DNA from: a virus
Lineage: Duplodnaviria; Heunggongvirae; Uroviricota; Caudoviricetes
DNA: 32,403 nucleotides
IMG/VR virus record: IMGVR_UViG_2675903336_000004
Direction: 5' to 3' (one strand)
Below, piece by piece: positions 1,882 through 25,263 of this stretch. Position numbers and translations under genes: made by a program. Position 1 is the first letter of the stretch. Each line of letters begins with the position of its first letter. The notes beneath the pieces are model-generated. The model was not told the DNA's origin. It saw only the letters and a list, made by a program, of their open reading frames with translations, and did no database searches.

Positions 1882-4901
<3,020 letters not shown>

Positions 4902-4978
4902 AACCCTTGCTGCGTCTGGAATGTCGTTTTCCATGCTTTTGATGACCGTTCATCACCCTTCCAGTTTTTCGCGGTTTT

Positions 4979-5031
4979 GTGTATTGCAATGTGTATTGCA
5001 AATTGGCGATCGGGATGGGTGTGTATTGCAA
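4979..5031 (+). repeat. integrase arm-type direct repeats GTGTATTGCAA x3 (attL arm, upstream of int)
   Basis: Exact 11-mers at 4979-4989, 4991-5001 and 5021-5031. Two more copies in the same orientation sit at 15645-15667, just inside attR. Confidence 0.7.
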
Positions 5032-5049
5032 ATCTCTTGAGGGCTTTTA

Positions 5050-6291
5050 ATGGCTATTGAAAACAAACTCAGTGACAAACTGTTAAAGAGTCTTGTCGGA
5101 AAACGGCAGGACAAACAAAAAACAATAGCGGATGGGCGCGGGTTGTCTGTGCGTGTAAGCATGGTTGGGGGGATCAGCTTTGTTTTTTACTATCGTCTTG
5201 GTGGCAGGGAATCCCCTCCGGTATGGCTTACACTTGGTCGCTATCCTGACATGTCTCTTGCAACGGCCAGGCGCATGCGTGATCAGTGCCGTGAATGGCT
5301 GGCTGAAAATCTGGACCCCCGCAGGCAAATAAAACTTGCTGCCGAAAAAACTATGCAACCAGTGACCGTAAGGGATGCGCTGTTTTACTGGTACGACAAT
5401 CACGCCACAACAGCCAGAAAAGAGCATGAATATTTAATAAAACGATTTGAAAAGCATATCTTCCCCTATATCGGTGATATGGCTATAGAACAGTGCAAAT
5501 TACACACATGGCTTACCGTCTTTGACAGGATCAAAAAAAATGCGCCTGTTATGTCTGGTGCAATTTTTCTTGATATCAAACAGGCGTTGCGTTTTTGTCG
5601 CGTCAGGCAATACATCGCGTGCGATCCCTTTGGAGATATTAACGTAAGTTATGTCGGGCGCTCATCCGGTATAAGGGATCGCGTTCTTAATATCAATGAA
5701 ACCGCTGATGTATGGTCTTATGCTTACGGTAATAATTTGCTAACTCTGTCATCAATATATAACCGAAGAATAATGGTTATCTGCCTGGTGTTTGGTTGCC
5801 GACAGCAGGAGGCGAGGCTATCCACCTGGGACGAATGGGATTTAAAAAACTGGGTATGGACAGTCCCAAAAGAGCACAGCAAAAACAAGGAGGCTATAGT
5901 AAGGCCTGTTCCTGACGGAATAAAACAATGGATCGTTAATCTTTACGCAGAAACAAAAAATCGCGGTTATGTTGTCGGTTGTGCTTTGCAAAGGGCGACA
6001 ATAACAGGGGCTGCAAACAGAATATGCAGGCGTCTTGGTCATGATACTAATGGCTTGTGGTGCATACATGATTTCAGGCGCACATTTTCCACTACGCTTA
6101 ATGATATGGGGGCGGATCCTTATATTGTCGAACTTCTTTTAGGTCATAAAGTGAAAGGGGTTGCTGGTGTTTACAATAAAAGCAGGCATATAAAGAAAAA
6201 ACTTGAGGTGCTTAATATGTGGGTTAATTACCTTAATACGATAGCAGGATTTAACAACAACGTTATCGAGCTTAATAAAGAGGTGGTGTGA
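5050..6291 (+). CDS. int: tyrosine-type site-specific integrase (P4-like family)
   Basis: 413-aa ORF with the C-terminal catalytic signature HDFRRTFSTTLNDMGADPYIVELLLGH...VYNKS (His-x-x-Arg and Tyr). Located immediately inside attL, preceded by the arm repeats. Confidence 0.9.
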   Translation: MAIENKLSDKLLKSLVGKRQDKQKTIADGRGLSVRVSMVGGISFVFYYRLGGRESPPVWLTLGRYPDMSLATARRMRDQCREWLAENLDPRRQIKLAAEKTMQPVTVRDALFYWYDNHATTARKEHEYLIKRFEKHIFPYIGDMAIEQCKLHTWLTVFDRIKKNAPVMSGAIFLDIKQALRFCRVRQYIACDPFGDINVSYVGRSSGIRDRVLNINETADVWSYAYGNNLLTLSSIYNRRIMVICLVFGCRQQEARLSTWDEWDLKNWVWTVPKEHSKNKEAIVRPVPDGIKQWIVNLYAETKNRGYVVGCALQRATITGAANRICRRLGHDTNGLWCIHDFRRTFSTTLNDMGADPYIVELLLGHKVKGVAGVYNKSRHIKKKLEVLNMWVNYLNTIAGFNNNVIELNKEVV

Positions 6292-6292
6292 T

Positions 6293-6550
6293 ATGACAAT
6301 TTATTCTCTTGTTGATGAAAACGATTTGCGCACAATGAAGGACATTGATCGGTTCATTCGTGAAAAAGAGTGCATAGCACTTACCACGCTGGCAAACTCA
6401 ACACGCTGGAAAATGGAGCAGGCAGGTAAATTCCCGCGACGTATCAAGATCGGTGAACGTGCTGCAGGGTATCGACTTTCAGAGGTTCAGGCATGGATCC
6501 GTGGTGAGTGGCATCCTGGATGGAAACCTGGAAAAACAAAACAGCAATAA
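6293..6550 (+). CDS. alpA: AlpA-family transcriptional regulator / putative excisionase
   Basis: 85-aa ORF directly downstream of int. The segment IREKECIALTTLANSTRWKMEQAGKFPRRIKIGERAAGYRLSEVQAWI fits the AlpA/Xis-type HTH pattern. Confidence 0.8.
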   Translation: MTIYSLVDENDLRTMKDIDRFIREKECIALTTLANSTRWKMEQAGKFPRRIKIGERAAGYRLSEVQAWIRGEWHPGWKPGKTKQQ

Positions 6551-6563
6551 CCAGTAAATAATG

Positions 6564-6586
6564 CCCCTCATCACGAGGGGTTTTTT
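6564..6586 (+). terminator. rho-independent terminator after alpA
   Basis: Hairpin CCCCTC-atcac-GAGGGG followed by TTTTTT. Confidence 0.75.
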
Positions 6587-6606
6587 GTCTATAAGGTAAA
6601 AACGCG

Positions 6607-7185
6607 ATGAATAAAAATATTGCCGTGACGGGCAAGGGGTACGCTCGTCCAGTGAAAAAATTCTGCGATATTCGTGATCTCGTCGTTCTGCGCTTTGATA
6701 GTGTGAACGTTCGTGTGGTGTATCTGAACGGCGATCCGTGGTTTGTTGCAAAAGATGTTTGTGCTGCGCTGGAACTAACCAATTCGCGTACGGCGTTGCA
6801 GATGCTTGATGATGATGAAAAGGGAGTAAATTTAACTTACACCCCAGGAGGAAATCAGAATATGAGAATTATCTCTGAGTCAGGTTTCTACAAACTAATA
6901 GCCCGCAGCCGCAAAGCAACGACGCCTGGCACATTTGCTCATCGTTTCAGTAACTGGGTATTCAGAAATGTGATACCAGGTATCAGAAAAACGGGGACTT
7001 ATGGTATCCCGTGGGGTGCATTACAGGATTTTTCCCGCCGTAAAGAGCAATATCAAATAAGTGCCAGCGAGAAGGGGAGGGAGCTACAGGCATGTAAGCG
7101 CAAAAAGCGTGAGCTGGAGGAAGAAGAAAAAACGCTGATACGTGAATATCAGCCTGAGTTTTACTTTGGTAACCGCATTCAGTGA
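6607..7185 (+). CDS. Bro-N domain protein (antirepressor-like)
   Basis: 192-aa ORF. The segment DPWFVAKDVCAALELTNSRTALQMLDDDEKG...ISESGFYKLIARSRKATTPGTFAHRFSNWVFRNVIPGIRKTGTY matches the Bro-N/KilA-N type domain, with a charged coiled-coil-like C-terminus. Confidence 0.65.
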   Translation: MNKNIAVTGKGYARPVKKFCDIRDLVVLRFDSVNVRVVYLNGDPWFVAKDVCAALELTNSRTALQMLDDDEKGVNLTYTPGGNQNMRIISESGFYKLIARSRKATTPGTFAHRFSNWVFRNVIPGIRKTGTYGIPWGALQDFSRRKEQYQISASEKGRELQACKRKKRELEEEEKTLIREYQPEFYFGNRIQ

Positions 7186-7215
7186 CAAAACAAAGGCGAC
7201 CGCAAAAGGGTCGCC
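7186..7215 (-). terminator. putative rho-independent terminator of the leftward operon (possibly bidirectional)
   Basis: Hairpin GGCGACC-gcaaaag-GGTCGCC at 7195-7215, preceded on the + strand by aaaacaaa, which reads as a T-run after the stem on the - strand. Confidence 0.5.
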
Positions 7216-7281
7216 AGTGGGAACAAGGGAAAACAAAAGCATCACCAACAATGCCACATTTGCGGCTGGTGGGCAATGTGA

Positions 7282-7461
7282 TCAGTCAGATTTGGTTCGT
7301 TCCAAGGTTTGCAACGAGAGCTTTTTCCTGTGCTCTTTAAGGAATTTCTCAAGAGCAAACGAACAAGGTGCGAATCTTTCTGATTCATGTTCATGCGCTA
7401 TATTTTTGCGTCGTCTCTTACGAGTTGGTGATGGTGTTTTGGTTGATTCTGTGTCGCTCAT
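7282..7461 (-). CDS. small basic hypothetical protein (59 aa; below the ORF-track threshold)
   Basis: Manual translation of the reverse strand gives MSDTESTKTPSPTRKRRRKNIAHEHESERFAPCSFALEKFLKEHRKKLSLQTLERTKSD. It has an AGGA-containing RBS about 7 nt upstream and lies between orf101 and the terminator on the same strand. Confidence 0.35.
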   Translation of the reverse strand: MSDTESTKTPSPTRKRRRKNIAHEHESERFAPCSFALEKFLKEHRKKLSLQTLERTKSD

Positions 7462-7518
7462 GGTGCTGTCCTGTAAAGCAATGCGCCTGCGTTCCTCAAA
7501 CTATGGCGCTGATATTGG

Positions 7519-7824
7519 CTATTCATGCTCTTTGACCTTGCGTCGCTGGAGTTCTTCACGCGCGACGGTGACGAGTTGCCCGATCTCCTCGGCTGCTTTG
7601 ATGCCGATTTGTTCGACCTTAGCCAGGGCATCCAGTGACGACACAAGGGGATTTTCTCCGCTGCCTTCTGCTTGGCGGCGGGCTATTTCTCCGCGCATGG
7701 CGGTTACGATAAATCCGGCATTGCTTTCACCGTCCAGCTTAACGGATTCCATCCCTTGCATAACATCTAGTGGGACTCTGACAGTTGTCAGTTGTGATTT
7801 TGCGTTTTTGTTAGCCGTTGCCAT
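7519..7824 (-). CDS. putative transcriptional regulator (101 aa), divergent from the island early operon
   Basis: Complete ORF with an AGGAG RBS 8 nt upstream. It is transcribed away from the operator-containing intergenic region, and its position mirrors satellite/phage repressor genes. Fold assignment is tentative. Confidence 0.45.
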   Translation of the reverse strand: MATANKNAKSQLTTVRVPLDVMQGMESVKLDGESNAGFIVTAMRGEIARRQAEGSGENPLVSSLDALAKVEQIGIKAAEEIGQLVTVAREELQRRKVKEHE

Positions 7825-7885
7825 TTCTGAAACTCCTAATCATCGGTGTGTTTCAGTATACACAAAAAAAGAAATACAAAAAGCC

Positions 7886-7923
7886 TTGACGTGTGTTTCA
7901 TGCGCTCATAACATGAAACACAC
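7886..7923 (+). promoter_or_regulatory. rightward promoter (TTGACG, 17 bp, TAACAT) overlapped by a 12-bp perfect inverted-repeat operator
   Basis: GTGTGTTTCATG (7891-7902), 9-bp spacer, CATGAAACACAC (7912-7923). A third half-site GTGTGTTTCA is at 7846-7855. The -35 TTGACG is at 7886-7891 and the -10 TAACAT at 7909-7914. Confidence 0.6.
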
Positions 7924-8014
7924 CGAAAGGATTGTTGAAATACAAAGAGCAACGCCCCGCAGTGCTGGGAACACATACGGGGCGTCTAACCAACAACGTA
8001 AACTAGGAGCCGTT

Positions 8015-8212
8015 ATGGTTGCTGTAAATCATATACCACACCTTGTACACACACAAACGGCCTTTGTGTGGCGTTTTCTGGCACTGAGTGCCGGAGAATC
8101 TCAAATCATCCACGTAACCGCCTGGACGGAACGCGAAGCGCGTAGCCGTTGCCCGTCCGGTTGTGTTGCTGTATTCGCTGCAAAAATCCGCCAGGGAGTG
8201 AGTCATGCTTAA
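8015..8212 (+). CDS. small protein (65 aa), possibly Icd-like cell-division-inhibitor family
   Basis: ATG at 8015 with an AGGAG RBS 5 nt upstream; it shares frame and stop with the tail of the spurious long ORF 7142..8212. First gene after the operator-controlled promoter. Family assignment is from memory of a VWRFLAL-type motif and is tentative. Confidence 0.4.
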   Translation: MVAVNHIPHLVHTQTAFVWRFLALSAGESQIIHVTAWTEREARSRCPSGCVAVFAAKIRQGVSHA

Positions 8213-8390
8213 AACCTTCCGTGTATTTGCCCGAGCTGTTAACCCAATAGGCCACACAATTGGTATCGCTCAGAATGTGAAGGCTGTTAATGTTCAGACG
8301 GCTATTGCTGCGGTGAGAAGCGAATCATCAGAATATGGCTTATCACAAGTCATTATTTCAGCAGTGTATGAATTAAAAGAGGTGCATTAA
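8205..8390 (+). CDS. hypothetical protein (61 aa)
   Basis: Complete ORF whose start overlaps the stop of the preceding gene, indicating a translationally coupled operon. Confidence 0.4.
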   Translation: MLKTFRVFARAVNPIGHTIGIAQNVKAVNVQTAIAAVRSESSEYGLSQVIISAVYELKEVH

Positions 8391-8581
8391 TGCAGGAAAT
8401 TACATTACACGAAGCCGCTGAACGTGCGCACCAGACAGAAATTATTTGCCGCCTTCTTGAGGTATACCCGAACAAAATTACAGATGCTGATATATCCGCA
8501 CTGGCGAGCCTACTGGCGCGTCTTTCGGGAAGTGTCGCTAGTTTTTTGATTGAGGAAGAAAGTAAGCTGGTGGGGGATTAA
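8390..8581 (+). CDS. hypothetical protein (63 aa)
   Basis: Complete ORF with a TAATG stop/start overlap with the previous ORF. Confidence 0.4.
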   Translation: MQEITLHEAAERAHQTEIICRLLEVYPNKITDADISALASLLARLSGSVASFLIEEESKLVGD

Positions 8582-8803
8582 ATGAATACAGAACGGGAAG
8601 TCTTTTTTAAATTGTTAGCATGTGCAGAAAGTTCATTAACTTTAAATAATTCAGCAAAAGCAATATTAAATATGTGGCTTGATTGCATAAATGACAATGA
8701 AGATGCAAATATTGCTTATGGCCTGTTGTCACTTATTGATGAATCAGCAGAAAAACTCAATGACGCAATAAATAGTGCCCTGCTATCAAATAAGTCGAGT
8801 TAA
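8582..8803 (+). CDS. hypothetical protein (73 aa, AT-rich)
   Basis: Complete ORF abutting the previous stop. Codon composition is AT-rich. Confidence 0.4.
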   Translation: MNTEREVFFKLLACAESSLTLNNSAKAILNMWLDCINDNEDANIAYGLLSLIDESAEKLNDAINSALLSNKSS

Positions 8804-8820
8804 GTCGAGGAATAAATAAT

Positions 8821-9120
8821 ATGGAAATGAAAAATTCTGGCTTTATTGCCAGCGGCCCCGCTCGACCTGAATTTATGAACGGCGATATTTACCGCGATAA
8901 ATACGGCGGCACGGTAACGATTAAAGGCGTGGCAGAACGGCGCATCACTTACCGCCGTGAGGGGTATAGCTATGACTGCGTGATGCCTGTTTATCAGTTC
9001 CGGCGTGATTTTTCCCTGGTATATGCCGCACCCCGCAGTAAGCCCATCAGCAGGGAAAAAGCGTGGGGAAATATCCAGAAAATGAAAACCATGATTAACG
9101 GATTCAGAGGTAAAAAATGA
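8821..9120 (+). CDS. hypothetical protein (99 aa)
   Basis: Complete ORF with an ATGA overlap with the pri-rep start. Confidence 0.45.
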   Translation: MEMKNSGFIASGPARPEFMNGDIYRDKYGGTVTIKGVAERRITYRREGYSYDCVMPVYQFRRDFSLVYAAPRSKPISREKAWGNIQKMKTMINGFRGKK

Positions 9121-10871
9121 AACTGGCACCGAACGTAAAACAGCAGTCACGCGGCATAAAACACAAAGGAACAGAAGTCATTATTTTTGCGGGTAGTGAT
9201 GCCTGGGCACACGCGAAACAATGGCAGGAACATGATGCGCGTATGGCCGGAGATAATGAGCCTCCTGTGTGGCTTGGGGAGCAGCAGCTATCCGAACTGG
9301 ATAATCTGCAAATTGTGCCGGAAGGCCGAAAATCAGCACGCATATACAGGGCCGGATATCTTGCGCCTGTAATGATAAAGACGATTGGTCAGAAGCTGGC
9401 GGCAGCAGGCGTACAGGATGCAAATTTTTATCCTGAGGGTATGCACGGCCAGGAGGTGCAGAACTGGCGCGAATATCTGGCCCGTGAACGCCAGAATCTT
9501 TCTGATGGTCTGGTCATTGAGCTTCCGGTAAAGCAAAAGGCGCAACTTTCGCAGATGGCGGACAGTGAGCGCGCGCAGTTGCTTGCCGATCGCTTTGATG
9601 GCGTTTGCGTACATCCTGAAAGTGAAATCGTTCACGTATGGCGCGGCGGGGTATGGTGTCCGGTCAGCACAATGGAACTTAGCCGCGAAATGGTGGCGAT
9701 CTATTCAGAGCACAGGGCCACTTTCAGCAAGCGCGTAATCAATAACGCCGTGGAAGCGTTAAAAGTTATTGCCGAACCAATGGGCGAGCCGTCTGGCGAT
9801 TTGCTGCCGTTCGCCAATGGTGCGCTTGACCTGAAAACGGGGGAATTTTCCCCGCACACGCCGGAGAACTGGATCACCACGCACAACGGCATTGAGTACA
9901 CGCCACCAGCACCAGGGGAGAACATCCGCGATAACGCGCCAAACTTTCATAAATGGCTTGAGCACGCAGCCGGAAAAGACCCGCGCAAGATGATGCGTAT
10001 ATGTGCCGCGCTGTACATGATTATGGCGAACCGGTACGACTGGCAGATGTTTATTGAGGCCACCGGAGACGGCGGGAGCGGTAAAAGTACATTCACACAC
10101 ATAGCCAGCCTTCTGGCAGGGAAACAGAACACGGTAAGCGCTGAAATGACATCGCTTGATGATGCTGGTGGACGTGCGCAGGTTGTCGGGAGTCGTCTTA
10201 TCGTCCTGGCTGACCAGCCGAAATATACAGGCGAAGGAACGGGCATCAAGAAAATCACAGGCGGCGACCCCGTGGAAATTAACCCGAAATATGAAAAGCG
10301 TTTCACGGCGGTAATCAGGGCGGTGGTGCTGGCGACCAACAACAACCCGATGATATTCACCGAACGGGCCGGAGGTGTGGCACGTCGTCGCGTGATTTTC
10401 CGTTTCGACAATATCGTCAGTGAGGCCGAAAAAGACAGGGAGCTACCGGAAAAGATTGCGGCTGAAATCCCCGTTATTATCCGCCGATTGCTGGCGAACT
10501 TTACCGACCCTGAGAAGGCACGGGCTTTACTACTGGAACAGCGTGACGGTGATGAAGCACTGGCAATAAAGCAACAGACGGATCCGGTTATTGAGTTTTG
10601 CCAGTTCCTGAATTTTCTGGAGGAAGCGCGCGGCCTGATGATGGGTGGCGGTGGTGATTCAGTGAAGTACACGACCAGGAACAGCCTTTACCGCGTCTAT
10701 CTGGCGTTTATGGCATACGCGGGCAGGAGCAAACCGCTAAACGTGGCTGAGTTCAGCAAGGCCATGAAGCCAGCGGCGAAAGTTTACGGGCATGAATATA
10801 TTACGCGAAAAGTTAAGGGAGTAACGCAGACCAACGCAATTACAACAGACGATTGCGACGCGTTTTTATAA
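9117..10871 (+). CDS. primase/helicase replication initiator (pri-rep; P4-alpha/D5-like NTPase)
   Basis: 584-aa ORF with Walker A GDGGSGKST and a Walker B-like RLIVLADQP. Size, domain order and position (upstream of an iteron array) are as in PICI pri-rep genes. Confidence 0.85.
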   Translation: MKLAPNVKQQSRGIKHKGTEVIIFAGSDAWAHAKQWQEHDARMAGDNEPPVWLGEQQLSELDNLQIVPEGRKSARIYRAGYLAPVMIKTIGQKLAAAGVQDANFYPEGMHGQEVQNWREYLARERQNLSDGLVIELPVKQKAQLSQMADSERAQLLADRFDGVCVHPESEIVHVWRGGVWCPVSTMELSREMVAIYSEHRATFSKRVINNAVEALKVIAEPMGEPSGDLLPFANGALDLKTGEFSPHTPENWITTHNGIEYTPPAPGENIRDNAPNFHKWLEHAAGKDPRKMMRICAALYMIMANRYDWQMFIEATGDGGSGKSTFTHIASLLAGKQNTVSAEMTSLDDAGGRAQVVGSRLIVLADQPKYTGEGTGIKKITGGDPVEINPKYEKRFTAVIRAVVLATNNNPMIFTERAGGVARRRVIFRFDNIVSEAEKDRELPEKIAAEIPVIIRRLLANFTDPEKARALLLEQRDGDEALAIKQQTDPVIEFCQFLNFLEEARGLMMGGGGDSVKYTTRNSLYRVYLAFMAYAGRSKPLNVAEFSKAMKPAAKVYGHEYITRKVKGVTQTNAITTDDCDAFL

Positions 10872-10886
10872 TTTTTTGTAAAAGCC

Positions 10887-11105
10887 ATCTACCCCATCTA
10901 CCTGAACAAAATAAACGCATATTATTCAACATGATAAGTGGGTATAGGGCTAGGTAGAAGGCTAATAAAAGCTCTCTACCTCTTCTACCTGATTTTATCA
11001 GTTTCAGGTAGCAGGGTAGACGGCAGGTAGAGGAGTCAAAAAGCTATCTACCCGCTGAAAGCCGCGCCATTACTGACATGATGAGCATTCGGGTAGATGG
11101 GTAGA
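10887..11105. repeat. iteron array / putative replication origin (GGTAGA/TCTACC motifs, about 12 copies in both orientations)
   Basis: ATCTACC at 10887 and 10896; GGTAGA at 10953; TCTACC at 10975 and 10984; GGTAG(A) at 11007, 11015 and 11026; ATCTACC at 11046; GGTAGA at 11092 and 11100. Lies immediately 3' of pri-rep. Confidence 0.65.
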
Positions 11106-11218
11106 GGGGGGGAGGCACAACTAAAAACTTTTTAAACGAGGGGGGGTGAAAATAAATGCGCATACATAAAAATCACTTAACAAACATGCCAGCCGAAAAC
11201 ATGAATCAGGGGCGACAA

Positions 11219-11470
11219 ATGACCAAAATTCGCAGAGACAGAACACAGGCAAAATATAAAGCGTTAGACATGACAGAGCTTTCCTTAAAGGTGGCAATCA
11301 AAGCGATAGACCACCACACACGGGCAGGATACGCGAAGGAACATCCCGACCTGATAAGCGCATTCATGACCACAGCAGCGGCAAACTTTGCCACGCTGAC
11401 AGAACGGGAGATTGCCGAAGCGGAACAGGTGACAACCATCAATGTTAAAACCGGAGAGCAGACAGCATGA
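11219..11470 (+). CDS. hypothetical protein (83 aa from the ATG at 11219; track ORF begins at 11156)
   Basis: ATG at 11219 has an AGGGG RBS 6 nt upstream. Stop overlaps the ssb start (ATGA). Confidence 0.45.
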   Translation: MTKIRRDRTQAKYKALDMTELSLKVAIKAIDHHTRAGYAKEHPDLISAFMTTAAANFATLTEREIAEAEQVTTINVKTGEQTA

Positions 11471-11889
11471 CAGCACAGATAGCGGCTTACGGGCGGCTGG
11501 TGGCTGACCCGCAGTTAAAGACCACCAGCAAAGGGACACAAATGGCGATGGCGAGTATGGCGGTTCCCCTGCCGTGCAGCCAGGCAGATGACGGAACGGC
11601 GACGATGTGGTTATCCGTCCTGGCGTTTGGCAGACAGGCCGACGCACTGGCAAAACACCACAAAGGCGAACTGGTGAGCGTGGCGGGTAACATGCAGGTA
11701 AGCCAGTGGACAGGCCAGAACGGCGAAACGCGGCGGGGCTGGCAGGTTATCGCAGACAGCGTAATCAGTGCGCGAACGGCGCGACCGGGCGGCAAAAAAG
11801 GCCAGCAGGGGCAGGCCACTGACGCACTGAACAGGGCAAAACAACAGTCGGGGAATGATGATCCGTACGGCGATAATATACCGTTTTAA
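11467..11889 (+). CDS. ssb: single-stranded DNA-binding protein
   Basis: 140-aa ORF with an OB-fold-like core (MWLSVLAFGRQAD...VSQWTGQNGETRRGWQVIADSV), a Gly/Gln-rich linker and an acidic tail ending DDPYGDNIPF, like the SSB C-terminal DDDIPF tail. Confidence 0.75.
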   Translation: MTAQIAAYGRLVADPQLKTTSKGTQMAMASMAVPLPCSQADDGTATMWLSVLAFGRQADALAKHHKGELVSVAGNMQVSQWTGQNGETRRGWQVIADSVISARTARPGGKKGQQGQATDALNRAKQQSGNDDPYGDNIPF

Positions 11890-12100
11890 ATTCTGCAAAC
11901 AAAAAGATGCCGGAAAAAAATAGATTTTCCGGCATGCTACATAAATCCCGACCAAAGGAAGTAAATACATTAACACGAATTATCAGCACTGAAGTTGTTA
12001 CGGCATATTTTATACAACATTGCACTTGGTTGCATGTATTCGCATAGCAGACATCGGTAATAGAATATATTCACAATTATTTGTAATGAATGTAAAGAGG

Positions 12101-13147
12101 ATGAGTATGGTTGATTTATATTCGCCTACACAGCTTGTGCAGGTGGCTAATGCTGAAGATGTGCAAAAAAAATTAAATGCGTTGTTTACCAGTTTGTTTT
12201 TCACTCGCTCGGTAATGTTTGAATCGAGAGACATTATTCTTGATACGATCGACGATCCAAATATCCCGATCGCGGCGTTTTGCTCTCCTATGGTGGGCAG
12301 TAAAGTTTCACGAGATGAGGGATACGAATCAAAAACAATTCGTCCAGGTTATATGAAGCCGAAAAGCAGCATTGATCCAAATAAGTTAGCTGTGCGCCCT
12401 GCTGGTGTGTCACCTGAGCAATACAATGCTTTTGGGGCGCGTAATATTAAAGTTAAACAGGCGATTGTAAATCAGGCTAAAGCTATTCGTGCACGTATTG
12501 AATGGCTTGCTGTTCAGGCAATCACAACGGGGAAAAATATCATTGAGGGCGATGGTATTGAACGTTATGAGCTGGACTGGAATATAAAACCACAAAATAT
12601 CATCACTCAGTCTGGCGGTACTGAGTGGTCAGGTAAGGATAAAGAAACTTTTGATCCAAATGATGATATTGAGAGCTACGCAGAATTTAGTGAGGGCGTC
12701 ACTAATATCATCATTATGGGTGGTAATGTATGGAAGAAATACCGTTCATTCAGAGCGATAAAAGAGGCTTTGGATACCCGTCGTGGTTCTAATTCCGAAC
12801 TGGAAACGGCCCTTAAAGACCTTGGTGATTCGGTGAGTTTTAAAGGGTATATGGGCGATGTTGCGATTGTTGTTTACAGCGGGCGTTATACCGACGAGGA
12901 CGGAACAGAAAAACATTTCCTTGATCCTGATTTGATGGTGCTTGGCAATACGGCTCTTCAGGGGATTGTCGCCTATGGCGGTATTCAGGATCCGGAGCTA
13001 ATCCGAATGGGGCTGACTAAAGCCGAACTTGCACCGAAAAACTATATTGTGCCTGGTGATCCGGCTATTGAATATGTGCAGACACATTCAGCACCACAGC
13101 CAATACCGGCCCGCATCAATCGTTTTGTTACCGTTCGCATTGGCTAA
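12101..13147 (+). CDS. lambda gpE-like major capsid protein paralog (island-encoded)
   Basis: Alignable by eye along its length to the helper gpE in this window (18230..19255), e.g. ITQSGGTEWSGKDKETFDPNDDIESYA vs ITQSGVTEWSKRDKSTYDPTDDIEAYA, and TRRGSNSELETALKDLG...YMGDVAIVVYSG vs TRRGSHSELETAVKDLG...MYGDVAIVVYSG. Clearly diverged. An alternative start at 12107 has better RBS spacing. Confidence 0.8.
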   Translation: MSMVDLYSPTQLVQVANAEDVQKKLNALFTSLFFTRSVMFESRDIILDTIDDPNIPIAAFCSPMVGSKVSRDEGYESKTIRPGYMKPKSSIDPNKLAVRPAGVSPEQYNAFGARNIKVKQAIVNQAKAIRARIEWLAVQAITTGKNIIEGDGIERYELDWNIKPQNIITQSGGTEWSGKDKETFDPNDDIESYAEFSEGVTNIIIMGGNVWKKYRSFRAIKEALDTRRGSNSELETALKDLGDSVSFKGYMGDVAIVVYSGRYTDEDGTEKHFLDPDLMVLGNTALQGIVAYGGIQDPELIRMGLTKAELAPKNYIVPGDPAIEYVQTHSAPQPIPARINRFVTVRIG

Positions 13148-13156
13148 GGGGGAGCA

Positions 13157-13498
13157 ATGGCTACTCATTACACTGAACTCATGGCTGGCACTGAAGCACT
13201 GGTGACTACGCTGGGGATATTTTCAGCTAATAAAGGGGTAATTCCTGCATTTACGCCACTGATGCAGGAAGATGCAACAGGTGCACTGGTGGTATGGGAT
13301 GGTTCGAGCGTAGGTAAAGCGGTTTATGTTTCCGCTGTACAAATCGACACAGCGAAAAAAACACAGGCACAGGTTTATAAGACAGGTGTTTTAAATGTTG
13401 ATGCTCTGAACTGGCCTGAGTCTGTAAAAGAACTGTCGGCAAAGGTTGCCGCGTTTGTTGGCTCAGGTATTTCTGTTCAGCCGCTGGCTCGTGTGTAA
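13157..13498 (+). CDS. lambda gpD-like head decoration protein paralog (island-encoded)
   Basis: 113-aa ORF with a strong RBS (AAGGGGGAG). Shares the motifs TPLM, WDG, YKxG and WPE with the helper gpD (17842..18174) at equivalent spacing. Gene order is E-like then D-like, the reverse of lambda. Confidence 0.7.
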   Translation: MATHYTELMAGTEALVTTLGIFSANKGVIPAFTPLMQEDATGALVVWDGSSVGKAVYVSAVQIDTAKKTQAQVYKTGVLNVDALNWPESVKELSAKVAAFVGSGISVQPLARV

Positions 13499-13509
13499 AG
13501 GGGGATACA

Positions 13510-13893
13510 ATGCAGAATCATTACAATGACCTTAAGCCAATTGCCGAAATGATGTATCCGGATCCAGCAGTAGAGGAATTAAAGGCTATTGCTGACAAAA
13601 TGCGTTTAAGTGAACGCCTTGTTGATATGAATCAGGTGATGGAACTTACTACCCTTAGCCGTCGCACATTGCTAAACCTTGAGGCTCGCGGAGAGTTCCC
13701 CGAACGCGTACAGGTTACGGAAGGGCGTAAGGCCTGGTATTTAAGTGAAGTGATCGACTGGATAAACAATATTCCTCGATCTTCTGAATATTGCCGCGTA
13801 CCTGTCCCAAAAAAGCCAGATGCGGCGCTATGCCTCAAGATTGAGCGTGTACGTCGCAATGCACGGGATGGTCGCTATAAGTTGATTGGTTGA
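13510..13893 (+). CDS. AlpA-like HTH DNA-binding protein (second AlpA paralog), directly upstream of the island cos
   Basis: 127-aa ORF with RBS AGGGGG. The central segment MELTTLSRRTLLNLEARGEFPERVQVTEGRKAWYLSEVIDWI fits the AlpA/MerR-like HTH pattern and is flanked by N- and C-terminal extensions. Confidence 0.6.
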   Translation: MQNHYNDLKPIAEMMYPDPAVEELKAIADKMRLSERLVDMNQVMELTTLSRRTLLNLEARGEFPERVQVTEGRKAWYLSEVIDWINNIPRSSEYCRVPVPKKPDAALCLKIERVRRNARDGRYKLIG

Positions 13894-13918
13894 TGAAATT
13901 AGGGCCCGTTCTGGCTGG

Positions 13919-13985
13919 CGGGTCCTTTCCGGCGATCCGGTAGGCTACGGGGCGGCGACCTCGCGGGTTTTCGCTATTTATGAGC
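13919..13985 (+). other. cos: island cos site (cosQ-like segment plus canonical lambda cosN GGGCGGCGACCT at 13950-13961)
   Basis: gggtcctttccggcgatccg...ctacgGGGCGGCGACCTcgcgggttttcgctatttatga matches the lambda cos core as recalled. Downstream sequence, where cosB would be, differs from the prophage cosB. Confidence 0.8.
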
Positions 13986-14094
13986 CTTTTTCGGGTGCTG
14001 GTGGTGGTTTTGTTGTTCGCTCTATCTCTATGAATAAAAAGGAAAAGATAAAGCCAATACACCAACCTGAAACATTACTTAAGTGGGGATATTG

Positions 14095-14637
14095 ATGAAA
14101 TCGCACCTGATGAACAAAAAAAACATGGCGCAAAGCTGCCGTGTAAGTGCGACAGCGTTCGACAAGTGGGGAGTGACTCCCGTTGAACGTAAAGGCCGCG
14201 AGGCGTTTTATGATGTTGCCAGCGTAATAGACAATCGGGTTAGCAATGCAATTAACCAGATTACAGACGACAAAGGCGAGATTGATGATGATGAACTCCT
14301 ACGAGTCAGGATCAGATTGCTGACAGCACAGGCAGAGGCGCAGGAGCTTAAAAACGAGCGCGAACGCGGCGACGTTATTGATACAGCGTTTTGTATATAC
14401 GTGCTTTCAAAATTGGCGAGTCAGATTTCTTCAATCATGGACAGCCTGCCGCTTGCCATGACAAGGAAGTTTCCCGACATGAAGCCGTCTATGCTGGATG
14501 GACTGAAAAAAGAAGTTATCAGAGCCTGTAACGCATGCGCAAAACTTGACGAAAACATACCGCTGATGCTGTCCGATTATCTGATGGAAACTGCCGGAAA
14601 CGTACCGGATAAGTTGCAGCCGAATAAAGATAAGTAA
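14095..14637 (+). CDS. Nu1-like terminase small subunit (island-encoded; diverged N-terminal DNA-binding domain)
   Basis: The C-terminal two-thirds align with helper Nu1 (LTAQAEAQELKNERERGDVIDTAFCIYVLSKLASQISSIMDSLPLAMTRKFPDM vs LTRAQADAQELKNARDSAEVVETAFCTFVLSRIAGEIASILDGIPLSVQRRFPEL). The N-terminal about 60 aa are diverged. ATG at 14095 has a GTGGGG RBS; the track ORF starts at GTG 14083. Confidence 0.85.
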   Translation: MKSHLMNKKNMAQSCRVSATAFDKWGVTPVERKGREAFYDVASVIDNRVSNAINQITDDKGEIDDDELLRVRIRLLTAQAEAQELKNERERGDVIDTAFCIYVLSKLASQISSIMDSLPLAMTRKFPDMKPSMLDGLKKEVIRACNACAKLDENIPLMLSDYLMETAGNVPDKLQPNKDK

Positions 14638-14648
14638 CGTAGTACGCT

Positions 14649-14930
14649 ATGACTGAATCCGAAATACTGCGATTAATCCGCCGTGCTTGTGGAATCAGCA
14701 AGCAGCATGACGAACAGGCCACGCAGCCGGACAGCGTGACCGCAGATAATTATGTGCGTGTAGTGGCTGAGGTGATGCGCCGTGACGGTATTGAGCTTAA
14801 CGGCGTGGATATGCGCAACATACGAACAAGAGTCCTTGAGTTGCTGGCATATCGTCGCCGTTCTCAACAACGGAGGGAGAGCGCGAAAAATACTTACCAG
14901 TGGAAGAAGCCGGAACGATTGCGGCGGTAA
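14649..14930 (+). CDS. hypothetical protein (93 aa, Arg-rich C-terminus)
   Basis: Complete ORF immediately downstream of the island terS. No recognisable motif. Confidence 0.4.
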   Translation: MTESEILRLIRRACGISKQHDEQATQPDSVTADNYVRVVAEVMRRDGIELNGVDMRNIRTRVLELLAYRRRSQQRRESAKNTYQWKKPERLRR

Positions 14931-14945
14931 CTTGCTGATATTCCC

Positions 14946-15156
14946 GATAACGCAAAATTGCGCTGGCTGACTTGTTGCATTGCAAAAAGTTAAGCAGGAA
15001 GGCACGGCCTGTAAGATGGGATGCAGTAAGTAGTTCAAGGCTACCTTGTGCTGGCACGCACAGTTAAGCCGTCGGTGCTGGATATCCCCCACTGGGGGAA
15101 AAGCTGGCTACATCCCTCACATCTGAGGACTGATAACGCGACATTGCGCTGGCTGG
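14946..15156 (+). repeat. pair of 24-bp direct repeats GATAACGC(A/G)A(A/C)ATTGCGCTGGCTG, each followed by a short palindrome
   Basis: Copies at 14946-14969 and 15133-15156 match at 22 of 24 positions. Palindromes CGCAAAATTGCG and GTGCAAAATTGCAC lie within or next to them. Confidence 0.6.
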
Positions 15157-15180
15157 CAAAGTGCAAAATTGCACGATGGC

Positions 15181-15342
15181 CTAACCCATTGATTATTTCG
15201 AAAACCTGCAATGCAGGAAATCGGGGAAGTAAGCCTAAGCTATTGATTGTTTCGAAAACCCCCATTGGGGGATGTCGGGAAAGTAAGACTAACCCATTGA
15301 TTCTTCCACAATCCTCAATTTGAGGAGGCCGGAACGTCTACA
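15181..15342 (+). repeat. three tandem 54-bp repeat units, each with a different perfect hairpin (covarying stems)
   Basis: Units start at 15181, 15235 and 15289, each with CTAA(C/G)C(C/T)ATTGATT. Hairpins are CCTGCA-a-TGCAGG (15205-15217), CCCCCA-ttg-GGGG (15259-15271, stem of 4-5 bp) and CCTCAA-t-TTGAGG (15313-15325). Related hairpins lie upstream at 15086-15098 and 15115-15128. Confidence 0.7.
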
Positions 15343-15644
15343 TAGCTGCATCGCCGTAATGATGATTCAGCCCACCAGCCAAATCAGCACAGCAACGACA
15401 GAATAGCCCGACACAGAAAAACCACGAATATGGGGTTTTTGTTATGACATGGTCATGATGACCACTCATACAAAACAGGTAAAGCCCACCAGCCTGATTA
15501 AAGGTTAACCGGAAAAAAGCCAGGTATCCAATCTCGATATGGGGATCCCTATATCGACATTAACGCCCACTAAAACTGTGCATATATGCATAGAAAAAGC
15601 ATCCACCAGCTTTATGACGGATGCCGCTCATCTTATAAATAATC

Positions 15645-15667
15645 GTGTATTGCAGTGTGTATTGCGA
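15645..15667 (+). repeat. integrase arm-type repeats (GTGTATTGCAG, GTGTATTGCGA) at the attR arm
   Basis: Two copies in the same orientation as the three attL copies, about 75 bp inside the attR core. Confidence 0.65.
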
Positions 15668-15739
15668 CTCCTTTAAACGATAGGTCTGAGCATTCGTAAT
15701 GTACTGTTTTTAAATTTTATTTTTTCCTGTCTTTTCATA

Positions 15740-15747
15740 AAGGCGAT
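15740..15747. repeat. attR core (AAGGCGAT), right copy of the direct repeat
   Basis: Identical 8-mer to 4842-4849. Lambda B coding sequence resumes immediately to its right. Confidence 0.7.
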
Positions 15748-16316
15748 GTATGCCGCCACCATTGAAAGTGAGCTGGATACGCAGTCAGCGATGGATTTTA
15801 TTCTGGGCGCGAACAGTAAGGAGCAGCGGGAAAGGCTGACGGGCTGGATTGGTGAAATTGCCGCGTATTACGCCGCAGCACCGGTCCGTCTGGGAGGCGC
15901 AAAAGTGCCGCACCTGATGCCGGGGGACTCACTGAACCTGCAGACGGCTCAGGACACGGATAACGGCTACTCCGTGTTTGAGCAGTCACTGTTGCGGTAT
16001 ATCGCTGCCGGGCTGGGTGTCTCGTATGAGCAACTTTCCCGGAATTACGCCCAGATGAGCTACTCCACGGCACGGGCCAGTGCGAACGAGTCGTGGGCGT
16101 ACTTTATGGGGCGGCGAAAATTCGTCGCATCCCGTCAGGCGAGCCAGATGTTTCTGTGCTGGCTGGAAGAGGCCATCGTTCGCCGCGTGGTGACGTTACC
16201 TTCAAAAGCGCGCTTCAGCTTTCAGGAAGCCCGCAGTGCCTGGGGGAACTGCGACTGGATAGGCTCCGGTCGTATGGCCATCGATGGTCTGAAAGAAGTT
16301 CAGGAAGCGGTGATGC
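15746..16316 (+). CDS. B: portal protein B, 3' fragment (from native Met276; truncated by masked gap at 16317)
   Basis: MYAATIESELDTQSAMDFILGANSKEQRERLTGWIGEIAAYYAAAPVRLGG... matches the lambda gpB C-terminal half. The ATG at 15746 overlaps the attR core. Confidence 0.9.
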
Positions 16317-16584
16317 NNNNNNNNNNNNNNNNNNNNNNNNNNNNNNNNNNNNNNNNNNNNNNNNNNNNNNNNNNNNNNNNNNNNNNNNNNNNNNNNNNNN
16401 NNNNNNNNNNNNNNNNNNNNNNNNNNNNNNNNNNNNNNNNNNNNNNNNNNNNNNNNNNNNNNNNNNNNNNNNNNNNNNNNNNNNNNNNNNNNNNNNNNNN
16501 NNNNNNNNNNNNNNNNNNNNNNNNNNNNNNNNNNNNNNNNNNNNNNNNNNNNNNNNNNNNNNNNNNNNNNNNNNNNNNNNNNNN

Positions 16585-20071: not shown

Positions 20072-20697
20072 ATGGCCATAAAAGGTCTTGAGCAGGCCGT
20101 TGAAAACCTCAGCCGTATCAGCAAAACGGCGGTGCCCGGTGCCGCCGCAATGGCCATTAACCGCGTTGCTTCATCCGCGATATCGCAGTCTGCGTCACAG
20201 GTTGCCCGTGAGACAAAGGTACGCCGGAAACTGGTAAAGGAAAGGGNNNNNNNNNNNNNNNNNNNNNNNNNNNNNNNNNNNNNNNNNNNNNNNNNNNNNN
20301 NNNNNNNNNNNNNNNNNNNNNNNNNNNNNNNNNNNNNNNNNNNNNNNNNNNNNNNNNNNNNNNNNNNNNNNNNNNNNNNNNNNNNNNNNNNNNNNNNNNN
20401 NNNNNNNNNNNNNNNNNNNNNNNNNNNNNNNNNNNNNNNNNNNNNNNNNNNNNNNNNNNNNNNNNNNNNNNNNNNNNNNNNNNNNNNNNNNNNNNNNNNN
20501 NNNNNNNNNNNNNNNNNNNNNNNNNNNNNNNNNNNNCCGGGAAAAACCGTTACCCCATTGATGTGGTGAAAATCCCGATGGCGGTGCCGCTGACCACGGC
20601 GTTTAAACAGAATATTGAACGGATACGGCGTGAACGTCTTCCGAAAGAGCTGGGCTATGCGCTGCAGCATCAACTGAGAATGGTAATAAAGCGATGA
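20072..20697 (+). CDS. Z: tail completion protein Z (contains masked gap 20247-20536)
   Basis: N-terminus MAIKGLEQAVENLSRISKTAVPGAAAMAINRVASS... before the gap. After the gap the frame ending at TGA 20695-20697 encodes ...[49 protein letters not shown]. The gap length breaks the apparent frame. Confidence 0.85.
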
Positions 20698-22691: not shown

Positions 22692-25263
22692 ACCGGTAGG
22701 CGATCTGGTCGTTGATTTGAGTCTGGATGCGGCCAGATTTGACGAGCAGATGGCCAGAGTCAGGCGTCATTTTTCCGGTACGGAAAGTGATGCGAAAAAA
22801 ACAGCGGCAGTCGTTGAACAGTCGCTGAGCCGACAGGCGCTGGCTGCACAGAAAGCGGGGATTTCCGTCGGGCAGTATAAAGCCGCCATGCGTATGCTGC
22901 CTGCACAGTTCACCGACGTGGCCACGCAGCTTGCAGGGGGGCAGAATCCCTGGCTGATCCTGCTGCAACAGGGTGGTCAGGTTAAGGACTCCTTCGGCGG
23001 GATGATCCCCATGTTCAGGGGGCTTGCCGGCGCGATCACCCTGCCGATGGTGGGGGCCACCTCGCTGGCGGTGGCGACCGGTGCGCTGGCGTATGCCTGG
23101 TATCAGGGCAACTCAACCCTGTCCGATTTCAACAAAACGCTGGTCCTTTCCGGTAATCAGGCGGGACTGACGGCAGATCGTATGCTGGTCCTGTCCAGAG
23201 CCGGGCAGGCGGCAGGGCTGACGTTTAACCAGACCAGCGAGTCACTCAGCGCACTGGTTAAGGCGGGGGTAAGCGGTGAGGCTCAGATTGCGTCCATCAG
23301 CCAGAGTGTGGCGCGTTTCTCCTATGCATCCGGCGTGGAGGTGGACAAGGTCGCTGAAGCCTTCGGGAAGCTGACCACAGACCCGACGTCGGGGCTGACG
23401 GCGATGGCACGCCAGTTCCATAACGTGACGGCGGAGCAGATTGCGTATGTTGCTCAGTTGCAGCGTTCCGGCGATGAAGCCGGGGCATTGCAGGCGGCGA
23501 ACGAGGCCGCAACGAAAGGGTTTGATGACCAGACCCGCCGCCTGAAAGAGAACATGGGCACGCTGGAGACCTGGGCAGACAGGACTGCACGTGCATTCAA
23601 ATCCATGTGGGATGCGGTGCTGGATATTGGTCGTCCTGATACCGCGCAGGAGATGCTGATTAAGGCAGAGGCTGCGTTTAAGAAAGCAGACGACATCTGG
23701 AATCTGCGCAAGGATGATTATTTCGTTAACGATGAAGCACGGGCGCGTTACTGGGATGATCGTGAAAAAAAACGCCTGGAGCGGGATGCAGCCCAAAAGA
23801 GGGTAGATCAACAGCGTCAACAGGACAAAAATGCGCAGCAGCAGAGCGATACCGAAGCGTCACGGCTGAAATATACCGAAGAGGCGCAGAAGGCTTACGA
23901 ACGGCTGCAGACGCCGCTGGAGAAATATACCGCCCGTCAGGAAGAACTGAACAAGGCACTGAAAGACGGAAAAATCCTGCAGGCAGATTACAACACGCTG
24001 ATGGCGGCGGCGAAAAAGGATTATGAAGCGACGCTGAAAAAGCCGAAACAGTCCGGCGTGAAGGTGTATGCGGGCGATCGTCAGGAAGACAGTGCTCATG
24101 CGGCCCTGCTGACGCTTCAGGCAGAACTCCGGACGCTGGAGAAGCATGCCGGAGCGAATGAGAAAATCAGCCAGCAGCGCCGGGATTTGTGGAAGGCAGA
24201 AAGTCAGTTCGCGGTACTGGAGGAGGCGGCACAACGTCGCCAGCTGTCCGCACAGGAGAAATCCCTGCTGGCGCATAAAGACGAGACGCTGGAGTACAAA
24301 CGCCAGCTGGCTGCACTTGGTGACAAGGTTACGTATCAGGAGCACCTGAATGCGCTGGCGCAGCAGGCGGATAAATTCGCACAGCAGCAACGGGCAAAAC
24401 GGGCAGCCATTGATGCGAAAAACCGGGGGCTGACTGACCGGCAGGCAGCGCGGGAAGCCACGGAACAGCGCCTGAAGGAACAGTATGGCGATAATCCTCT
24501 GGCGCTGAATAACGTCATGTCAGAGCAGAAAAAGACCTGGGCGGCTGAAGACCAGCTTCGCGGGAGCTGGATGGCAGGCCTGAAGTCCGGCTGGAGTGAG
24601 TGGGAAGAGAGCGCCACGGACAGTATGTCACAGGTTAAAAGTGCAGCCACGCAGACCTTTGATGGTATTGCACAGAATATGGCGGCGATGCTGACCGGCA
24701 GTGAACAGAACTGGCGCAGCTTCACCCGCTCCGTGCTGTCCATGATGACAGAAATTCTGCTTAAGCAGGCAATGGTGGGGATTGTCGGGAGTATCGGCAG
24801 CGCCATTGGCGGGGCTGTTGGTGGCGGCGCATCCGCGTCAGGTGGTACAGCNNNNNNNNNNNNNNNNNNNNNNNNNNNNNNNNNNNNNNNNNNNNNNNNN
24901 NNNNNNNNNNNNNNNNNNNNNNNNNNNNNNNNNNNNNNNNNNNNNNNNNNNNNNNNNNNNNNNNNNNNNNNNNNNNNNNNNNNNNNNNNNNNNNNNNNNN
25001 NNNNNNNNNNNNNNNNNNNNNNNNNNNNNNNNNNNNNNNNNNNNNNNNNNNNNNNNNNNNNNNNNNNNNNNNNNNNNNNNNNNNNNNNNNNNNNNNNNNN
25101 NNNNNNNNNNNNNNNNNNNNNNNTGATTCAGAACGACGGTACGAATGGTCTGCCAGGTCCACAGATGATGAAGGCCGTGTATGACATGGCCCGCAAGGGT
25201 GCCCGTGATGAAATTCAGACACAGATGCGTGATGGTGGCCTGTTCTCCGGAGGTGGACGATGA
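22684..25263 (+). CDS. H: tail tape measure protein H (contains masked gap 24852-25123)
   Basis: MAEPVGDLVVDLSLDAARFDEQMARVRRHFSGTESDAKKTAAVVEQS... is a long Ala/Gln-rich coiled-coil protein matching lambda gpH. Confidence 0.93.
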   Translation: MAEPVGDLVVDLSLDAARFDEQMARVRRHFSGTESDAKKTAAVVEQSLSRQALAAQKAGISVGQYKAAMRMLPAQFTDVATQLAGGQNPWLILLQQGGQVKDSFGGMIPMFRGLAGAITLPMVGATSLAVATGALAYAWYQGNSTLSDFNKTLVLSGNQAGLTADRMLVLSRAGQAAGLTFNQTSESLSALVKAGVSGEAQIASISQSVARFSYASGVEVDKVAEAFGKLTTDPTSGLTAMARQFHNVTAEQIAYVAQLQRSGDEAGALQAANEAATKGFDDQTRRLKENMGTLETWADRTARAFKSMWDAVLDIGRPDTAQEMLIKAEAAFKKADDIWNLRKDDYFVNDEARARYWDDREKKRLERDAAQKRVDQQRQQDKNAQQQSDTEASRLKYTEEAQKAYERLQTPLEKYTARQEELNKALKDGKILQADYNTLMAAAKKDYEATLKKPKQSGVKVYAGDRQEDSAHAALLTLQAELRTLEKHAGANEKISQQRRDLWKAESQFAVLEEAAQRRQLSAQEKSLLAHKDETLEYKRQLAALGDKVTYQEHLNALAQQADKFAQQQRAKRAAIDAKNRGLTDRQAAREATEQRLKEQYGDNPLALNNVMSEQKKTWAAEDQLRGSWMAGLKSGWSEWEESATDSMSQVKSAATQTFDGIAQNMAAMLTGSEQNWRSFTRSVLSMMTEILLKQAMVGIVGSIGSAIGGAVGGGASASGGTXXXXXXXXXXXXXXXXXXXXXXXXXXXXXXXXXXXXXXXXXXXXXXXXXXXXXXXXXXXXXXXXXXXXXXXXXXXXXXXXXXXXXXXXXXXXIQNDGTNGLPGPQMMKAVYDMARKGARDEIQTQMRDGGLFSGGGR

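Follow-up and report, generated by a model that had tools for sequence, protein, structure and literature searches.

Five direct repeats in a helper-embedded satellite as predicted arm-type sites of its P4-like integrase

A satellite inside a prophage portal gene

The window considered here, by which we mean the whole 32,403-nt stretch of DNA that was analysed, is the head-gene region of a lambdoid prophage, with genes for the small and large terminase, W, portal, protease, D and E. The portal gene, which belongs to the lambda B family and lies on the plus strand, is split in two. Its 5' part (4020-4901; positions 2-242 of the PF05136 profile) is cut at 4849 and runs on into a satellite as far as a stop at 4901, and its 3' part (15748-16316, also plus; profile positions 238-354) continues into an N-masked run; the Phage_portal_2 profile match ends near 4863 and resumes at 15746. 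Five N runs of 253-290 nt lie inside helper genes (3140-3426, 16317-16584, 20247-20536, 24852-25123 and 29731-29983); they are masked stretches, not biology, and one of them cuts the 3' part of the portal gene.

The satellite occupies 4850-15747 on the plus strand, a length of 10,898 bp (10.9 kb) with one copy of the identity block counted. All of its genes are on the plus strand, co-oriented with the helper portal gene that it splits at 4849/15748. The integrase gene int (5050-6291, plus) encodes a P4/CP4-like tyrosine integrase of 413 aa with Pfam matches PF13356, PF22022 and PF00589, and is followed by alpA (6293-6550, plus), whose 85-aa product (PF05930) is a presumed excisionase or activator. 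Further genes encode Bro-N, DUF4222, a D5-type primase and SSB, and the satellite also has a lambda E-like capsid gene, a D-like decoration gene, a second AlpA-like gene, a cosN site and a Nu1-like small terminase gene. A 356-aa open reading frame at 7142-8212 is probably no gene; at this place a near-identical RefSeq record has a minus-strand YlcI/YnfO gene and a short Icd-like gene instead.

The homologues of helper head genes lie within 12020-14637 and comprise capsid E (42% identical to the helper E), decoration D and the Nu1-like small terminase, for which the Pfam Nu1 match covers the C-terminal part alone; the second AlpA-like gene sits among them. Such captured genes suggest capsid remodelling and redirected packaging. 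The satellite cosN has the exact lambda form, GGGCGGCGACCT (13950-13961), with lambda-like flanks, and stands directly upstream of the satellite's own Nu1-like terS. The helper cos region (1140-1175) has GGGCGGAAGGCGCG in place of GGGCGGCGACCTCG, which amounts to six consecutive changes within the cohesive-end sequence. A near-identical helper in CFSAN029787 has the canonical cos form, and no complete E. coli genome matched positions 1100-1340 of the window over their full length at 99% identity or more (best 97.9%). It may be that the helper, unlike the satellite, cannot cut its own cos.

Two other repeat arrays lie in the satellite. Near its right end, at 15179-15340 and in no annotated gene, there are three tandem 54-nt units, each of which holds one of the window's only three exact IHF-consensus matches (minus strand) and a hairpin with a 5-bp stem, the stems being compensatory (CCTGC/GCAGG, CCCCC/GGGGG and CCTCA/TGAGG). 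Part of such a unit also occurs close to the right end of the hpt PICI (L122:31498-31544), and an Rfam search of the element, these units included, returned no match. Iteron-like direct and inverted repeats (AAAAGCYMTCTACC...) directly follow the primase gene at 10880-11058, and PICI replication origins have been reported at such a place, just after the primase gene (PMC10111431).

Over the stretch tested, the satellite is 99.9% identical to CP011416.1 3698288-3709185, which is Eco2613.11.B_Phage_portal_2_241 in the tables of the paper that defined helper-embedded PICIs, or HE-PICIs (Tommasini, Mageeney & Williams 2023, NAR Genom Bioinform; PMC10111431). The element is a HE-PICI of site group B:Phage_portal_2:241. 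It is inserted in a late gene and co-oriented with it, carries the int/alpA/primase module, with an integrase that belongs to the HE-PICI clade, and has the doubled TGTATTGC motif on both attP arms, and the identity block listed for its site group is aaggcgat (PMC10111431 SuppFile1). Excision after helper induction has been shown experimentally for the capsid-gene element 11capE alone (PMC10111431); for the present satellite, the evidence comes from the population, with 63 filled and 3119 empty sites among complete E. coli genomes.

Junctions, rebuilt attP and the five repeats

The block AAGGCGAT is common to both junctions, at 4842-4849 and 15740-15747. At the attL junction (4842-4854), it runs into the element-side core arm TTTATG (4849-4854), and at the attR junction (15736-15747) the element-side core arm CATAAA leads into it. 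When the two ends are joined to give the attP of the excised circle, about 390 bp long, the rebuilt core is the inverted repeat CATAAA-GGCGA-TTTATG. Because the inverted arms CATAAA and TTTATG stand around GGCGA, the 7-bp overlap is likely AGGCGAT (15741-15747); a T/G difference directly outside it tells the element core arm from the portal core arm.

Joining the flanks restores an in-frame portal gene, with the frame ...QSAIVKAMYAATIESELD... across the join. This rebuilt empty site of 303 nt occurs without interruption, 100% identical, in intact portal genes of other E. coli genomes; of 5426 complete E. coli genomes, 3119 contain 80% or more of it. We found the attL junction together with int in 63 complete E. 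coli genomes, the full set that carries this int, so insertion is strictly site-specific. A sequence-only reading of the window had argued for a genuine integrase-type insertion over a chance or assembly junction; with identical portal junctions in 63 of 63 genomes and the empty site in 3119, this holds. An assembly artefact is excluded by the same 63 identical junctions in complete genomes. A search for the reconstructed attP in the phage collection did not find it, and a distant nucleotide search with int reached the element's own group alone.

Five direct repeats, all on the plus strand, lie on the two attP arms and are distinct from the core-type inverted repeats. On the int-proximal arm, the attL side, exact GTGTATTGCAA forms a doublet of half-sites at 4979-4989 and, 12 nt further on, at 4991-5001, and the same exact 11-mer comes a third time at 5021-5031, 30 nt past the second half-site. 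On the int-distal arm, the attR side, the doublet consists of GTGTATTGCAG (15645-15655) and, again 12 nt past it, GTGTATTGCGA (15657-15667), each with one mismatch to GTGTATTGCAA. The sequence-only reading had described three identical and two near-identical 11-mers in one orientation, three at attL and two at attR: the letters and strands agree on checking, and the division between the ends is correct given the junctions at 4842-4849 and 15740-15747.

We scanned both strands of the 32.4-kb window with TGTGTATTGCA at up to one mismatch and obtained five matches in all, the five repeats themselves; the element has no sixth copy, whether close to the alpA promoter region or in any other part. 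Dinucleotide-preserving shuffles gave a mean of 0.71 matches and reached five or more in 0 of 100 cases. The exact 8-mer TGTATTGC is also present at 5614, 12425 and 28434, each time as a minus-strand singleton without the 11-mer context, and we take these three as chance. For the five repeats, a chance origin is excluded by the shuffle test together with their conservation in dozens of elements.

The doubled motif tgTGTATTGCantgTGTATTGCa has been described as present twice, co-oriented, in every HE-PICI attP, at 81 +/- 2 bp upstream and 132 +/- 2 bp downstream of the attP centre (PMC10111431). In the window, the int-side doubled motif begins 132 nt past the overlap centre, which is the published position. 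Measured from the overlap centre to the start of each 8-mer core, the far-arm doublet begins 98 and 86 nt before the centre (direct, with 12-nt spacing), the int-side doublet, co-oriented with it, at +134 and +146, and the fifth copy at +176. With respect to int, the 8-mer core of the first int-proximal half-site begins 70 nt before the ATG, the three int-proximal sites span 28-70 nt before the start codon, and the GAGGG ribosome-binding site and the ATG follow the end of the fifth 11-mer at 8 and 19 nt, respectively.

Three copies crowded upstream of a start codon in this way, the last of them just before the ribosome-binding site, could point to a purely transcriptional function, in which the repeats would serve as an int operator or promoter, or as a roadblock to helper late transcription, and have no role in synapsis; in P4, too, a repeat overlaps the int start codon. 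Against this, the same doublet stands at the element's other end, where no element gene follows, and at a fixed distance from the crossover, and scanning 4700-5200 for promoters and terminators gave no match, with no sigma-70-like promoter upstream of int. We regard a purely transcriptional function as very improbable: regulation may add to recombination and is unlikely to replace it.

Conservation of the layout and candidate readers

A scan of viral contigs (IMG/VR) for TGTATTGCNNNNTGTATTGC returned 120 stretches. About 46 of the 120 are co-oriented doublets just upstream of an Int homologue (48-100% identity), and about 24 are far-end copies, after which the late gene resumes about 93 nt later. 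Near the other 50 or so, no protein of the element is encoded, and we discarded these as unrelated or chance repeats; with 16 bases specified, about this many would be expected by chance in a collection of this size. Across groups with differing cores, such as AAGGCGAT and AACCCAAGCA, the spacing is constant: the far-arm doublet starts 94-97 nt ahead of the identity block, and the int-side doublet comes 138 nt past the block. In all HE-PICI groups, the far-arm doublet is exact amid flanking sequence that is unrelated between elements, a pattern that reads as a clear footprint of selection.

The doubled motif has been stated to be absent from fis PICIs (PMC10111431), which is true of the exact sequence; the architecture, by contrast, is there. 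In the E. coli fis PICI, TGTATAAAcatYTGTATAAA stands 91 nt before the core and 142 nt after it and, besides these doublets on both arms, there is a fifth, single copy of TGTATAAA. The E. coli hpt PICI, with an Int 46% identical to that of the satellite, carries TATATCACTcggTGTATCACT on both sides of the core, 85 nt before and 148 nt after, the second copy lying 44 nt upstream of int. The P4 record annotates its 12-nt 'attP arm sequence repeat' five times: one doublet precedes the core, another follows it, and the fifth copy, inverted, overlaps the int start codon. The half-sites in the fis and hpt PICIs and P4 are TGTATAAA, TGTATCAC and TGGGGGCA.

A genome-wide scan combined with an alignment of Int proteins yielded three half-site classes, TGTATTGC, TGTATCA(C/A) and TGTATAAA, each in the form of 12-nt-spaced direct doublets 33-66 nt before int in nearly all loci, with a few degenerate or single. 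Three consecutive half-sites at 12-nt spacing stand upstream of int at a Winslowiella locus (L139:9947-9985, TGTATCAA three times) and a Proteus locus (L155:9939-9975, TGTATAAA three times), so the number of int-side arm sites varies within the family.

The satellite integrase itself offers a plausible reader. Its N-terminal domain matches Arm-DNA-bind_3 (PF13356; E = 3e-17) over residues ~7-94, encoded at nt 5068-5331, and also the solved arm-binding domains 3ju0 and 3jtz/3rmp (PDB; E ~1e-6). These matches and the fixed two-arm geometry support the earlier proposal that the repeats are arm sites of a tyrosine integrase with an N-terminal arm-binding domain, and the P4-like layout and the co-variation of half-site with N-domain back it as well. 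Among 47 integrases, F45, P57 and W59 go with TGTATTGC (F45 and P57 in 24 of 24, W59 in 23 of 24), and W, L and R at positions 45, 57 and 59 go with the other two half-site classes (12 of 12 and 11 of 11), a co-variation that spans three clades only and is therefore confounded by shared descent. Int positions 30 and 35 differ between the two classes with W, L and R.

We tentatively place the class-specific residues on DNA-contacting strands; the placement is tentative because the single-sequence AlphaFold model of Int residues 1-110 is poor (pLDDT 51), with the rough order of strands and helices alone usable. The motif is invariant within HE-PICIs, and there the mean pairwise identity of the Int N-domain is 67%, as compared with 46% for the core-binding and 47% for the catalytic domain, but the N-domain is the best-conserved part of Int between half-site classes as well (59% vs 39-43%), so that its conservation alone is weak evidence. 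Taking these lines together, we think it likely that the five repeats are arm-type sites of the satellite's own P4-like tyrosine integrase.

Which protein reads the doubled motif was left open when HE-PICIs were defined, with integrase arm domains, AlpA or an unknown protein as the candidates (PMC10111431). Were the repeats AlpA sites, for arm bending or transcription control, Int would read the core alone, and the constant adjacency of alpA to int is in keeping with such a division of labour. Xis/AlpA-type directionality factors also often bind tandem direct repeats. They usually act on one arm, however, whereas the doublets are on both arms, in an integrase-like geometry. Moreover, the motif is invariant across HE-PICI groups, but AlpA has a mean identity of 48% (minimum 33%) and its putative recognition helix differs from one to the next (ANSTRWKMEQ, SQAGLYRAEK, PKSTRAFMEK, GASTRHYMIK and GRRHRALLEK). 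The hpt PICI has a different AlpA paralogue and the same layout. AlpA is reported to activate the alpA promoter (PMC10111431), yet the motif is absent near it. Recognition of the repeats by AlpA in place of Int thus appears quite unlikely to us.

The repeats might also be sites for a DNA-bending protein of the host or helper, given that attP arms are often bound by host factors such as IHF. The motif is off the IHF consensus, though, and the three IHF matches of the window lie outside the att arms; in addition, the three half-site classes coexist in one host species, where they follow the Int class of the element. That the five repeats are sites of this kind, or a product of chance or assembly, is extremely improbable.

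The fifth copy, a proposed mechanism and known systems

Most HE-PICI groups have the doublet 32-49 nt before the int ATG, without a third exact copy. In the portal-241 group and in elements whose Int is 88%, 76% or 70% identical to it, the last of these from Erwinia, the doublet lies 66-85 nt upstream of the int start, and a third int-side copy stands exactly 30 nt past the second half-site. The 22-nt spacer between the 8-mers has diverged among these relatives while the +30 copy is kept, exact in L009 and L028 and with one mismatch in L123 (TGTATTGT). Given that the spacing is held despite the diverged spacer, the fifth site is a conserved feature limited to the portal-241 subclade, and it lies outside the 2023 description.

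We infer that Int binds these sites heterobivalently: its C-terminal domains would bind and cut the core, and the N-domains of the same molecules would hold the distant repeats. Holding the arms would fold attP into a recombination-competent intasome that captures AAGGCGAT in lambda-family portal genes, to which each of the individual sites might contribute. After integration, three sites would be left beside int, at attL, and two at the far end, at attR; excision would reassemble the arm sites, presumably with help from AlpA. Int at the int-proximal sites may also damp its own expression, as has been reported for related integrases. Such autoregulation is speculative because no sigma-70-like promoter was found upstream of int; it gains plausibility from IntS of ICEMlSymR7A, a P4-family integrase with five arm-type motifs (P1-P5), all of them needed for efficient integration, which when bound to attP is reported to shut off intS transcription (PMC11963761).

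An unlikely variant, as we see it, is that the fifth site and the int-proximal doublet form a gate and do not serve synapsis alone, or else that some protein other than Int reads the doublets. While the satellite is integrated, late transcription of the helper may run through the broken portal gene into int, and Int bound 28-70 nt before its own start codon may throttle this read-through. Satellite excision and portal repair may then be timed to a set point in the helper late phase, and the extra site may have been added in the portal-241 subclade to tune that timing.

A HE-PICI breaks an essential head gene of its helper, which precise excision alone can repair, and the att machinery therefore sets the timing of the life cycles of both partners. 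If the doublets are integrase arm sites, as we favour, this would explain how one integrase clade could be retargeted to 14 or more late-gene sites: the core alone would change, with the arm scaffold and its spacing fixed. As the fis and hpt PICIs and P4 have the layout in common and differ in their half-sites, they could also provide a simple swap system for P4-like arm-site specificity.

Among known systems, P4 comes close, with the same Int family and its arm-binding N-domain, 12-nt-spaced doublets that flank the core, the second of them just upstream of int, and a fifth copy adjoining the int start. It differs in its half-site (TGGGGGCAYA), in the fifth copy, which is inverted and overlaps the ATG, and in its target, a tRNA-Leu gene as against a phage late gene here. 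Lambda has a heterobivalent integrase and five arm sites, P1 and P2 and P'1, P'2 and P'3, distinct from its core sites. The likeness lies in five arm sites split 2 + 3, with three on the int-proximal arm, a division that P4 has as well; the arm-binding domain family, the site sequence and the spacing are different, and the use of the sites has been dissected experimentally in lambda, whereas we argue from sequence.

ICEMlSymR7A likewise has its five arm-type motifs in a 283-bp attP adjoining intS, but their consensus is TGKTGGTATC, the element is a conjugative one in a tRNA gene, and its directionality factor is encoded far from int (PMC11963761).

The nearest precedent is the HE-PICI paper itself, which shares with our analysis the motif, the attP positions, the element type and the identity block, and tabulates the 99.9%-identical copy (PMC10111431); its attL/attR alignment files are too short to take in the doublets, and we left them out. 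Among later HE-PICI papers in the collection that we searched, we found none that took the question of the reader further by experiment. What the motif is, where it lies, which element carries it and the integrase-arm hypothesis were already known, and we have correctly rediscovered them, so the value of the five-repeat finding is one of confirmation, for a motif whose likely meaning is already in the literature. The published account counts four half-sites and does not mention the copy at 5021-5031 (PMC10111431). What we add is modest: a conserved fifth site, a layout shared, with variant half-sites, by the fis and hpt PICIs and P4, and a comparison that favours Int over AlpA.
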